DNA of 64,000 nt from Carpediemonas membranifera BICM (lineage: Eukaryota > Protista > Fornicata), in the NCBI GenBank assembly GCA_019828565.1, contig JAHDYR010000067.1, positions 106,722 through 170,721 of the forward strand. The letters run 5' to 3'. Below are positions 27,877-41,229 of this stretch, one piece after another. Each line of letters opens with the position of its first letter. Within the stretch, counting starts at the first letter, position 1. The translations under genes and the position numbers were made by a program. The notes beneath the pieces are model-generated. The model was not told the DNA's origin. It searched no databases and saw only the letters and a program-made list of their open reading frames with translations.

Positions 27877-29198
27877 GCATTACCGGACATTTGACGCGCA
27901 CAACCTGCTTAATACTGCATAAAAGCATCGCTGATCGCTTTCTCTTCTGTTCTTCAACGCCCAAGGAGCGGCTTCCAGGTCGGCAACGGTTGCCGACCTG
28001 GACCCGTATGCAGTTTATGCTTTTTCGGCCAACCGACGAAGTCAAGCTTAGCCAAGACACATACTGTGTACAAGGACCCTGGCAGGCTAGTTACGCCGCT
28101 CAGCCTCTGCATCCAGTTGATAATCACTCGCCATTTACTTCTGGTGCTTTTCCTGCTCTCTCTTCTCCATCACGTCGTCATACTCGGCCCTCGTCAGCCT
28201 CACAGTTGTCATCCCGGCATCACGGATGTGCTCAAAGGCCTCAACGGGCAGCTTCGGCATCCCGTCCTCGCTGTCGCTGCTGCTGCCCAAGTCTGACTCG
28301 CTCTCGTGATAGCGGCGAAGGCGAATGCGTCTGCTGGGCTCCCTGGTCTTCATAGCGTCATAGAGCGGAGCGAGCCCACTTCCATTGGCCCCGCTACGGA
28401 CACCCTCATCGGTATCTCTCTCAGACATATCACACTCAACCTGTTGTGACTGAACAAATGACAGGTTGTCGACGAGGCTATCCTCGGCATCGCTGTCTGA
28501 ACTCTCCTCATCCTCCCACTCTCCTTCCAGCATCTCCAACCCGGCCTCATCGTCAAACTCGCCCTCCACTGCGGTCTCCGGCATCTCTGCCTCGCCAGCT
28601 GTCTCGTCAAACAGCGCCTCATCGTCAGACTCACCCTCCCCTGTGTCGACCCCATCGGGATTACGCTGGTCGTGGAGCTGGACCATCCTCATCCTGAGCT
28701 TTTTGTAAAGCCACCAGGTCGGCAGAGCTTAAGGTAATCCTGGCGCCCTCATCCTGGCGCCTCATCCCTGGCGCCGTCATCCCTGGCGTCCTCTCCCTCA
28801 TAAATCTGAATCATCTTCTTGTCTTGCTCCCGATGTTGTCATTGCTGTTTTCGTGTCCACAAGCATTCCAGTCTCATTATAATGTTTATTCAGTACCAAA
28901 TCATCCTTTAGTGACGGGCATTCTCATCTGCATTGCCGAGAAAAAGAGTTGATGTTGATTAGATGGTGACGAATGCATTACCGGACATTTGACGCGCACA
29001 ACCTGCTTAATACTGCATAAAAGCATCGCTGATCGCTTTCTCTTCTGTTCTTCAACGCCCAAGGAGCGGCTTCCAGGTCGGCAACGGTTGCCGACCTGGA
29101 CCCGTGCAGTTTATGCTTTTTCGGCCAACCGACGAAGTCAAGCTTGGCCAAGACACATACTGTGTACACGGACCCTGGCAGGCTAGTTACGCCGCTCA
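27877..29198. repeat. block A of the 1096-bp repeat family (~1.2 units)
   Basis: Near identical to 31.5-35.2 kb array. Confidence 0.92.
28135..28692 (-). CDS. 185-aa highly acidic protein, copy 1
   Basis: Near-identical to C-terminus of 38406-39794 ORF; own ATG. Confidence 0.6.
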   Translation of the reverse strand: MRMVQLHDQRNPDGVDTGEGESDDEALFDETAGEAEMPETAVEGEFDDEAGLEMLEGEWEDEESSDSDAEDSLVDNLSFVQSQQVECDMSERDTDEGVRSGANGSGLAPLYDAMKTREPSRRIRLRRYHESESDLGSSSDSEDGMPKLPVEAFEHIRDAGMTTVRLTRAEYDDVMEKREQEKHQK

Positions 29199-29202
29199 GA
29201 CT

Positions 29203-38405: not shown

Positions 38406-39794
38406 ATGGAAGGAAGCCCGCAGGAGATGGAAACAACCATGGAAGCTGTAAAGAATGCTTGGTTGTGCACCATCAGCAAGAAATCTTCCCGGAAAGCGGC
38501 TGCAAACAACCTTTCGCGGTTCGTTCAATTCGTACAACGTGAGCGAGGGAGTACCGAGGACGAAGCGCTCTCCGTGATCCGATCCGAGGAGGTTAGATCG
38601 CTTGTGCCCGGTTTTGCTGCATCATTGAACAAGGCAACCGCTGCTGTCACTCTCAGTGCCGTCAACTCATTCCGAAACTCCGGCAGAGACAATGTCAAGC
38701 CGCTTGGGCAGTTTGAGCCTGTCGCATCGGAAGCTATTGTCCGACTAGTCTTCCCCTACAATGCGCTGGCTCTTATCATCAGCCACACGGGCATGACTGC
38801 CACATCAGCCCGCGATATTGATGTGAGCGAGCTCCAGATTCCCCCGGAACTCTCTGACTGGTTGCTATTCACCGGGGCACCATCTGCGATGTCCGCTGTG
38901 ATGCCTAGCACCTTCTCGCAGGCTCTCAAGTCGGTCGGGCTGAGTGTTAACCAGCTTCGCTATGCGCCCACTGTGCATGTCGATCTCAATCAGCTCAAGA
39001 AGCGGGTGATTGAGACACAAAGACGGACTGGCAGGCCCAGGGATCCGATCAAGGTTCGTAAGGTCATTAAGGACAAGCGCATCAGCCTGACCGATGAGCA
39101 GTTCAGGCATCAGTTGGCGTCCAGTCACTTAACGACCACGCGGCGCCCAACGATCCTCGATCTCAACCCGGAGATCCGAAGCTCTGCTGACCTGGTGCCG
39201 CCGACGCTCGATGACTGGCTTTACAACAAGCTCAGGATTAGGATGGTCCAGCTCCACGACCAGCGTAAGCCCGAGGGGGTCGACACGGGGGAGGGTGAGT
39301 CTGACGATGAGGCGCTGTTTGACGAGACAGCTGGCGAGGCAGAGATGCCGGAGACCGCAGTGGAGGGCGAGTTTGACGATGAGGCCGGGTTGGAGATGCT
39401 GGAAGGAGAGTGGGAGGATGAGGAGAGTTCAGACAGCGATGCCGAGGATAGCCTCGTCGACAACCTGTCATTTCTTCAGTCACAACAGGTTGAGTGTGAT
39501 ATGTCTGAGAGAGATACCGATGAGGGTGTCCGTAGCGGGGCCAATGGAAGTGGGCTCGCTCCGCTCTATGACGCTATGAAGACCAGGGAGCCCAGCAGAC
39601 GCATTCGCCTTCGCCGCTATCACGAGAGCGAGTCAGACTTGGGCAGCAGCAGCGACAGCGAGGACGGGATGCCGAAGCTGCCCGTTGAGGCCTTTGAGCA
39701 CATCCGTGATGCCGGGATGACAACTGTGAGGCTGACGAGGGCCGAGTATGACGACGTGATGGAGAAGAGAGAGCAGGAAAAGCACCAGAAGTAA
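38406..39794 (+). CDS. degenerate tyrosine-recombinase-like N-terminus fused to acidic tail
   Basis: LALIISHTGMTATSARDIDVSEL (box I-like, R->T), GLSVNQLRYA (box II-like), no catalytic Tyr region; last ~185 aa = amplified acidic ORF. Confidence 0.65.
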   Translation: MEGSPQEMETTMEAVKNAWLCTISKKSSRKAAANNLSRFVQFVQRERGSTEDEALSVIRSEEVRSLVPGFAASLNKATAAVTLSAVNSFRNSGRDNVKPLGQFEPVASEAIVRLVFPYNALALIISHTGMTATSARDIDVSELQIPPELSDWLLFTGAPSAMSAVMPSTFSQALKSVGLSVNQLRYAPTVHVDLNQLKKRVIETQRRTGRPRDPIKVRKVIKDKRISLTDEQFRHQLASSHLTTTRRPTILDLNPEIRSSADLVPPTLDDWLYNKLRIRMVQLHDQRKPEGVDTGEGESDDEALFDETAGEAEMPETAVEGEFDDEAGLEMLEGEWEDEESSDSDAEDSLVDNLSFLQSQQVECDMSERDTDEGVRSGANGSGLAPLYDAMKTREPSRRIRLRRYHESESDLGSSSDSEDGMPKLPVEAFEHIRDAGMTTVRLTRAEYDDVMEKREQEKHQK

Positions 39795-41229
39795 ATGGCG
39801 AGTGATTATCAACTGGATGCAGAGGCTGAGCGGCGTAACTAGCCTGCCAGGGTCCGTGTACACAGTATGTGTCTTGGCCAAGCTTGACTTCGTCGGTTGG
39901 CCGAAAAAGCATAAACTGCACGGGTCCAGGTCGGCAACCGTTGCCGACCTGGAAGCCGCTCCTTGGGCGTTGAAGAACAGAAGAGAAAGCGATCAGCGAT
40001 GCTTTTATGCAGTATTAAGCAGGTTGTGCGCGTCAAATGTCCGGTAATGCATTCGTCACCATCTAATCAACATCAACTCTTTTTCTCGGCAATGCAGATG
40101 AGAATGCCCGTCACTAAAGGATGATTTGGTACTGAATAAACATTATAATGAGACTGGAATGCTTGTGGACACGAAAACAGCAATGACAACATCGGGAGCA
40201 AGACAAGAAGATGATTCAGATTTATGAGGGAGAGGACGCCAGGGATGACGGCGCCAGGGATGAGGCGCCAGGATGAGGGCGCCAGGATTACCTTAAGCTC
40301 TGCCGACCTGGTGGCTTTACAAAAAGCTCAGGATGAGGATGGTCCAGCTCCACGACCAGCGTAATCCCGATGGGGGTCGACACGGGGAGGGTGAGTCTGA
40401 CGATGAGGCGCTGTTTGACGAGACAGCTGGCGAGGCAGAGATGCCGGAGACCGCAGTGGAGGGCGAGTTTGACGATGAGGCCGGGTTGGAGATGCTGGAA
40501 GGAGAGTGGGAGGATGAGGAGAGTTCAGACAGCGATGCCGAGGATAGCCTCGTCGACAACCTGTCATTTGTTCAGTCACAACAGGTTGAGTGTGATATGT
40601 CTGAGAGAGATACCGATGAGGGTGTCCGTAGCGGGGCCAATGGAAGTGGGCTCGCTCCGCTCTATGACGCTATGAAGACCAGGGAGCCCAGCAGACGCAT
40701 TCGCCTTCGCCGCTATCACGAGAGCGAGTCAGACTTGGGCAGCAGCAGCGACAGCGAGGACGGGATGCCGAAGCTGCCCGTTGAGGCCTTTGAGCACATC
40801 CGTGATGCCGGGATGACAACTGTGAGGCTGACGAGGGCCGAGTATGACGACGTGATGGAGAAGAGAGAGCAGGAAAAGCACCAGAAGTAAATGGCGAGTG
40901 ATTATCAACTGGATGCAGAGGCTGAGCGGCGTAACTAGCCTGCCAGGGTCCGTGTACACAGTATGTGTCTTGGCTAAGCTTGACTTCGTCGGTTGGCCGA
41001 AAAAGCATAAACTGCACGGGTCCAGGTCGGCAACCGTTGCCGACCTGGAAGCCGCTCCTTGGGCGTTGAAGAACAGAAGAGAAAGCGATCAGCGATGCTT
41101 TTATGCAGTATTAAGCAGGTTGTGCGCGTCAAATGTCCGGTAATGCATTCGTCACCATCTAATCAACATCAACTCTTTTTCTCGGCAATGCAGAGGAGAA
41201 TGCCCGTCACTAAAGGATGATTTGGTACT
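39221..41229. repeat. block C: inverted-orientation copies of the 1096-bp unit
   Basis: Reverse complement of block B units. Confidence 0.92.
40333..40890 (+). CDS. 185-aa acidic protein, copy 5
   Basis: Repeat-unit ORF. Confidence 0.6.
   Translation: MRMVQLHDQRNPDGGRHGEGESDDEALFDETAGEAEMPETAVEGEFDDEAGLEMLEGEWEDEESSDSDAEDSLVDNLSFVQSQQVECDMSERDTDEGVRSGANGSGLAPLYDAMKTREPSRRIRLRRYHESESDLGSSSDSEDGMPKLPVEAFEHIRDAGMTTVRLTRAEYDDVMEKREQEKHQK

Follow-up and report, generated by a model that had tools for sequence, protein, structure and literature searches.

Probable passive copying of a truncated recombinase-like gene within a likely DNA transposon of Carpediemonas membranifera

Does repeated copying of one end of a gene give rise to a new gene, or only to more repeats? 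The question is raised by a 64,000-nucleotide stretch (hereafter, the window) of contig JAHDYR010000067.1 (positions 106,722 to 170,721 of the forward strand; assembly GCA_019828565.1) from Carpediemonas membranifera BICM, in which the 3′ half of a recombinase-like gene (open reading frame [ORF] 38406-39794; hereafter, the parent) recurs in five units inside a likely transposon of 22.7 kb. The original prediction, made from the letters of the window, was that the acidic tail of the parent protein had been spun off as a stand-alone gene with a newly created start codon and amplified for dosage, much like the gene accordions of poxviruses. We place a probability of about 0.6 on a different reading, namely that a 5′-truncated chimeric unit arose once and was then copied by ectopic recombination and unequal crossover, with no sign of selection as a new gene.

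Structure of the repeat units

Self-alignment and a six-way alignment located five units with a 1096-bp period, on both strands, that repeat parent positions 39216-40229; each consists of the last 185 codons (codons 278-462) of the parent ORF and its 3′ flank (Table 1). The predicted tandem and inverted 1096-bp copies of the C-terminal ~185 amino acids (aa) are thus present in the assembly, even though they form three separate blocks (3+1+1) with unrelated ORFs between them and not one array. Read from upstream, a unit comprises the parent 3′ flank, a 14-bp minisatellite (4.2 copies), 17 bp that resemble parent 39179-39195, a 20-bp deletion (the short upstream deletion of the original prediction), and the 185 codons. 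Parent and unit copies show 3-14 differences per 840 aligned columns, a similarity far beyond chance. The tail is acidic (28.6% Asp + Glu [D+E], isoelectric point [pI] 4.2), and the first 277 residues of the parent have a pI of 9.7.

The 185-aa ORF is intact in units 1, 2, 3, and 5, with the stop codon of the parent kept, whereas one extra G in unit 4 leads to a stop 20 codons after the homologous ATG and leaves 173 aa from another ATG. The description as a five-copy stand-alone ORF therefore holds for the units, but for only four of their ORFs. Unit 5 carries a compensated indel pair that alters three codons. In total, the four in-frame units contain two non-synonymous changes, one indel pair, and zero synonymous changes, and the fifth is frameshifted; in differences this few there is no sign of purifying selection. 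Alleles are distributed as a patchwork: unit 2 agrees with the parent at codon 80, and the neighbours of unit 3 share flank alleles.

Start codon, spacer, and origin of the units

At 39233, the parent reads CAGGATTAGG where all five units read CAGGATGAGG, which bears out the predicted ATT-to-ATG change. However, the parent continues ATT AGG ATG GTC (39243-39245 region), with an in-frame ATG two codons on, and the change prefixes just Met-Arg to an ATG present in the parent as well; in public gene calls, the units of the window begin at this second ATG (183 aa). Sibling elements on other contigs were judged from annotated proteins, and 22 family proteins from outside the window span the N-terminal/tail junction. 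An internal in-frame Met is found in all 22. The string MRMVQ occurs in four of them (P0006, P0014, and P0033 without any deletion at that site; P0008 after an in-frame deletion), YKKLRMR in two, and RNPDGVDT in one, so that all four amino-acid changes common to the units are alleles of the family. The gain of a start codon would call for a codon absent from the parent and the family, which is not what we find; judged from the sequence, a new start codon was neither needed nor made for the tail ORF.

In the history that we favor, the chimeric unit would go back to a template switch that joined flank and minisatellite to a member of the family. Unequal crossover, which is possible because unit and flank form a direct repeat (flank-unit-flank), could have expanded it into the three units of block a; conversion or circle integration may have placed single units at two other spacer paralogs (blocks b and c), and transposition or ectopic recombination would have carried a unit to a sibling element. 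The free tail would be a by-product at most. This history is supported by the few differences between the units and the local parent, which are alleles of other paralogs, and by the recurrence of the unit junction on another contig, where P0032 agrees with it at every one of 38 + 17 residues, the two stretches being separated by a frame slip. Next to P0032 in accession order stand the full-length paralog P0021 and the tail fragment P0028, an arrangement like that of the parent and unit 5. Older paralogs of the spacer (64% and 68% identity) adjoin the distal ends of blocks b and c. Passages of the C. membranifera genome paper (PMC8516963) argue for recombination-heavy repair and replication with recombination-dependent synthesis, and such synthesis in the host would fit a passive spread of the units.

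The minisatellite is found elsewhere as well. The C-terminus (residues ~590-830) of a sibling transposase (P0042) corresponds to a long tract of the 14-bp minisatellite read in antisense, and sequencing run X1 contains variant copies of this tract. Since the junction minisatellite occurs in P0042, it moves within the family.

Several observations weigh against a single, passive origin. No significant homology to the parent flank was seen on the proximal side of block a or block b (296/300 and 40/300 shuffles reach the score), so that homology does not account for the whole of the insertion step. Alleles may have passed from paralogs to units or the other way, indels in repeats may be assembly errors, and the units differ at too few sites for selection to be assessed. 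Annotation places tail-only ORFs on three further contigs (P0032, P0034, P0035), in addition to fragments (P0028, P0029), and the different allele in two of the tail-only ORFs may indicate a repeated origin; these two (P0034, P0035) could be separate units or broken full-length genes. The second ATG has a purine at -3 and G at +4, and the codon use of the unit ORFs is host-like (codon adaptation index 0.71 vs. 0.67-0.73). Given four intact ORFs out of five, the retained stop and 3′ flank, the ATG context, and the codon use, the unit ORFs could be translated.

A translated tail could also have been selected. According to this alternative, which we consider doubtful, selection amplified the dosage of a free acidic tail that is expressed from a captured spacer and works in trans, where it would sequester histones, mimic DNA, or restrain either the RAG1-like transposase or the basic DNA-binding domain of the parent. 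The four intact tail ORFs and the tail-only ORFs on three other contigs speak for it, as do the acidity common to both tail types of the family (29% and 33-34% D+E), the weak chromatin-type cargo of the element, and an H3-tail-like ORF in a related element; by analogy only, passages of PMC12337333 describe an acidic hinge in RAG1/2 that blocks target-DNA binding. However, the tail ORF had no need of a new start codon and acquired none, one unit is frameshifted, and there is no synonymous excess. A weaker point is that three out-of-frame ATGs in the minisatellite start a frame that overlaps the tail start (six upstream ATGs here vs. 1-4 in host genes). We regard it as unlikely that an undescribed family of 20-kb RAG1-like transposons with a chromatin toolkit, in a protist described as lacking the origin recognition complex (ORC), tunes its own activity through an amplified free acidic-tail decoy. 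The toolkit in this idea would comprise a dead recombinase-fold DNA binder with swappable acidic tails and SET-, PHD-, and H3-tail-like genes.

The spacer itself contains a 29-bp palindrome (39925-39953), the sole perfect palindrome in the window with arms of at least 10 bp. It occurs in eight copies, one with the centre base flipped, matching the count of the repeated flank module (eight) and exceeding that of the ORF (six including the parent). Its 11-bp arm recurs at the unit junction, with 21 exact copies that all lie within 27975-41048. Core-binding domains of tyrosine recombinases bind inverted repeats. The amplified entity might be a non-coding module in which the palindrome is a putative binding site of the recombinase-fold protein and accumulates as VANC motifs do, with the tail ORF riding along; in VANDAL elements, as described in part of PMC5735166, target motifs were gained by tandem repeat formation. 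We find this improbable, because the copies descend from one duplicated segment, so that their count is not an independent enrichment, and because no breakpoint falls at the palindrome.

The flank module also holds the 8-bp terminus of the element (39862-39869 and six other copies, 7/10 of the matches in the window). Alternative transposition from such a cryptic end was considered and rejected, as no block breakpoint lies there, and the idea that the spacer is an intron was dropped by eye (no joints). Rfam returned no matches in 23900-46700, and the fold of the spacer RNA does not stand out from shuffled sequences (z = -1.69; 5/100 shuffles equally good).

Recurrent indels at one G-run (units 4 and 5, P0013, P0032) suggest unpolished errors, and comparison with paralogs shows broken frames in both the transposase and ORF 42339-42812; according to a passage in supplement file 2 of PMC8516963, the published assembly was built from nanopore reads and polished with short reads. 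The array or its copy number might then be an assembly artefact of a repetitive element. Nevertheless, the units carry private substitutions, they lie in three blocks with different flanks and two orientations, and their junction is found on another contig. At the end of block a, unit-type spacer is joined to ORF 30141-31421, a join that a contig of run X1 confirms without showing the sequence upstream of it, and a contig of run X2 is identical at 231/231 spacer bases. An artefact is, on these grounds, improbable. The contigs of the two sequencing runs (word shares 0.09 and 0.05) are scattered pieces of which none crosses the junction at 40286-40470, and they are uninformative on expression and on the array.

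The parent family and the surrounding element

The predicted fold upholds the label recombinase-like that the original prediction gave to the parent. In a five-sequence model (predicted local distance difference test [pLDDT] 73-90 in ten-residue blocks 11 to 90, 31-64 elsewhere; a single-sequence model was unusable, pLDDT 40), residues 8-106 matched tyrosine-recombinase core-binding domains in a comparison with 48,161 Protein Data Bank (PDB) representatives. The best match had a Z of 8.7 and a root-mean-square deviation (rmsd) of 3.1 over 92 residues, followed by XerD (Z 8.5) and Ndc10 (Z 7.6) among others, and an integrase or recombinase is named in 11 titles of the top 16 (79-92 residues aligned with an rmsd of mostly 2.5-4.0; Z 8.7-6.2, modest for a helical domain). 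Foldseek gave no match at E ≤ 0.001, and five of its top 10 PDB rows were Xer recombinases; Atlas returned integrase clusters at 0.94, with just 116-117 shared features. The label stands because these three comparisons agree. Neither the parent nor its tail had a match at cut-off in Pfam, PHROGs (parent family and tail), or PDB sequences.

The catalytic motif of tyrosine recombinases is R-H-R-Y. Putative boxes I and II of the parent, placed by eye in regions where the model has pLDDT <60, appear to lack Arg and His at the catalytic positions. In 21 of the 22 proteins, a GRP motif is kept within basic surroundings; we take it to be AT-hook-like. Taken with the modeled fold, these features would suit a non-catalytic regulator in the service of the element, one that binds DNA through a recombinase fold and whose acidic tail is of an activation or chaperone-like type. 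The family has two N-terminal types (29-30% identical) and two acidic tail types (29-34% identical), and all four combinations of N-terminus and tail occur across a middle segment that is 83-98% identical; from these alignments, the family shuffles N-termini and acidic tails by recombination. Parent homologs form eight clusters with 21 members, all named C. membranifera except the one encoded in the window.

Location within a transposon, also part of the original prediction, is supported by 74-bp terminal inverted repeats (TIRs; 97% complementary), a DDE transposase-like gene, and a related second element. AA is present on both flanks and the ends read CATAC (a TA reading is also possible), giving the combination of TIRs and a short target-site duplication that is typical of CMCT transposons. 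The main transposase frame (ORF 42895-45435) has five homolog clusters, four of them named C. membranifera, and the locus tags of two homologs lie near those of parent paralogs (5138/5139, 1813/1803). Its top Atlas match is RAG1 (0.94, 171-174 shared features), a candidate DDE triad (D346/D425/E702) is conserved in all three complete paralogs, and there is no significant Pfam or PDB sequence match. The frame changes near 45365 relative to paralogs, and the frame breaks here and in ORF 42339-42812 reflect either decay or assembly error. Part of PMC12730594 gives C(2)C as a defining CMCT motif; no CxxC is found in the four transposases, H(3-4)H is absent beside the last Glu, and HYYSH stands 85 residues before this Glu in two of the four. 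Transib/RAGL elements have, in the account given in part of PMC9435367, a 5-bp target duplication and CAC ends resembling recombination signal sequences, whereas the flanks here share 2 bp and the ends read CATAC. The element likely works like a CMCT transposon, as far as its sequence tells, and is assigned to no named superfamily. We found no description of it in the literature: 'transpos' occurs zero times in the main text and supplement file 2 of PMC8516963 (the other nine supplementary files and Repbase were outside the search). No related DNA turned up in JGI metagenomes, IMG/VR, or prokaryote genomes.

The chromatin-type labels of the cargo (SET-, PHD/FYVE-, HEPN-, and OTU-like) are all sub-significant or given by eye, and ORF 24998 was rejected as a member of the parent family (profile probability 0.1). 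A 46-bp imperfect inverted repeat lies just inside the right TIR (46274-46426), and a similar weak one is found at 58578-58654 in the second element. The left end of this second element (58153-64000, continuing beyond the window) has the same 8-bp terminus after AA, and a segment at the expected offset from it is 82% identical to 24058-24277. It sits in ORF 57467-58219, and its cargo includes, among further ORFs, a protein kinase with a frameshift (58512-59905; Pfam E 5e-17). One of the further ORFs (62089-62373, + strand, 94 aa) matches the histone H3 N-terminal tail over its first 40 residues (phmmer E 7e-6, H3.3), with K4 kept, the positions of K9, S10, K27, and S28 changed, and no histone fold; its sequence makes it a candidate histone-tail decoy.

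The first 21.4 kb of the window contain long, unbroken eukaryotic genes, e.g., an O-GlcNAc/O-fucosyl transferase with TPRs and a zuotin-like DnaJ protein, and a mobile-element cluster extends from 21.7 kb onward. In the host part, a WW-domain coiled-coil gene (4401-8135) has about three near-identical internal 642-bp repeats (5568-7449), and a GC-rich gene (67%; 10754-12175, - strand) has zinc-finger, PHD-like, and SET-like motifs by eye. A 27-bp repeat array with an adjoining 110-bp segment occurs twice, in swapped order (22246-22506 and 55889-56157). A Ty3/Gypsy retrotransposon (48251-54196) has identical 123-bp long terminal repeats, a gag zinc knuckle, reverse transcriptase, RNase H, and integrase, a weak chromodomain match (E 0.057), and an antisense ORF of 301 codons (52373-53278).

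Table 1. Positions of the repeat units, their spacer, and the features of the element in the window
Feature	Position	Strand	Remarks
Unit 1 tail ORF	28135..28692	-	185 aa; from alignment
Unit 2 tail ORF	31983..32540	-	185 aa; Leu allele of parent at codon 80; from alignment
Unit 3 tail ORF	33079..33636	-	185 aa; from alignment
Unit 4 tail ORF	34175..34733	-	One-G frameshift; 173 aa from alternative ATG at 34696
Unit 5 tail ORF	40333..40890	+	185 aa; compensated indel pair
Block a	31548..35158	-	Three tandem units and partial flank
Block b	27874..29200	-	Single unit and partial flank
Block c	39216..41229	+	Parent tail, flank, unit 5, flank
Parent gene	38406..39794	+	462 aa; tyrosine-recombinase-like core-binding domain, basic middle with GRP motif, acidic tail
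Flank module	39795..40229	+	Eight full or partial copies; repeated with every unit
Unit-specific junction	40227..40332	+	14-bp minisatellite (4.2 copies), 17 bp parent-like, 20-bp deletion; also in P0032
Older diverged paralog of distal flank	27620..27873	-	130/204 columns identical; 0/300 shuffles reach score
Older diverged paralog of distal flank	41230..41480	+	62/91 columns identical; 0/300 shuffles reach score
Element	23921..46658	.	22,738 bp; likely cargo-carrying cut-and-paste DNA transposon (CMCT/RAG1-like); TIRs; termini CATACTGT
Left TIR	23921..23994	+	74 bp
Right TIR	46585..46658	-	74 bp
DDE transposase-like gene	42895..45508	+	Main frame ends at 45435; last ~45 residues of paralogs in another frame
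Cargo ORF	30141..31421	-	426 aa; no family; paralog on another contig
Cargo ORF	29246..30091	+	281 codons stop-to-stop; no family
Cargo ORF	35342..37234	-	630 codons; 54% D+E in residues 301-350; OTU-like by eye; no Pfam match
Cargo ORF	41515..42402	-	Cys/His zinc-finger clusters; FYVE E 0.029 and PHD E 6.3, below cut-offs
Split SET-like ORF	26870..27565	-	Best PDB rows SET protein, E 0.43-0.44, not significant
HEPN-like ORF	26168..26671	-	Pfam HEPN_Swt1 E 0.004, below cut-off
Frameshifted ORF	24980..25655	+	Recombinase-like by eye; no profile match to parent family

Significance and comparison with known systems

Ordinary turnover within a multicopy element most likely accounts for the array, a result that corrects the idea of a newly born start codon, and the element is of more interest than the array. 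A large RAG1/CMCT-like cargo transposon in a metamonad would add a lineage for which we found none described to those that harbor cargo-carrying DNA transposons. The family, with its shuffled recombinase folds and acidic tails, visibly records recombination in an organism described as lacking canonical replication initiation. Were the free tail expressed and under selection, this would be a rare transposon in which one half of a regulator is amplified to act as a decoy, and a parallel, carried on a transposon, of both poxvirus accordions and the RAG2 acidic hinge, for which passages of PMC12337333 provide the analogy.

The predicted likeness to poxvirus accordions is partial. In the vaccinia K3L accordion, as described in part of PMC6115191, the duplicon contains the whole ORF with its predicted promoter and expands under measured selection. 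The units resemble it in their head-to-tail, near-identical copies with one breakpoint (three tandem and two single units share one junction) and in their gene-conversion-like allele patchwork. In contrast, the copies described here comprise the 3′ half alone, lie in either orientation across three blocks, and have neither the 5′ half nor the promoter; the foreign spacer upstream of them is made up of 3′ flank and minisatellite.

The parent resembles Ndc10, MrpR, and SroF in its predicted core-binding fold, in catalytic motifs that are apparently missing, and in likely DNA binding without recombination. To our knowledge, none of these three proteins has recombinase activity. Unlike them, the parent is matched at residues 8-106 only, is borne by a DDE transposon, and is fused to exchangeable acidic tails. 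VANDAL elements with their VANC anti-silencing protein (PMC5735166, in part) are likewise DNA transposons with an accessory DNA-binding protein and dynamic internal tandem repeats, whereas the repeat described here contains half a gene; the parallel rests on analogy.

Compared to the CMCT clade (EnSpm/CACTA, Mirage, Chapaev, Transib/RAG1, Plavaka, and ESTA, as grouped in part of PMC12730594), the element shares a RAG1-like DDE transposase, TIRs, and cargo. Its 2-bp target duplication also agrees with this clade, in the form of either AA with CATAC termini like the CATCA ends of PlavakaB or TA like ESTA (same source, in part). It differs in the absence of C(2)C from all four transposases and of H(3-4)H near the last Glu, and in its length of 22.7 kb with about nine other ORFs. 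Comparable in build are the large En/Spm elements of Chondrus crispus (16-20 kb with 4-5 ORFs in the description given in part of PMC6431247), which are enlarged, multi-ORF elements of CACTA type in a non-plant, non-animal host; the C. membranifera element is larger, carries other cargo, and has an internal gene amplification.

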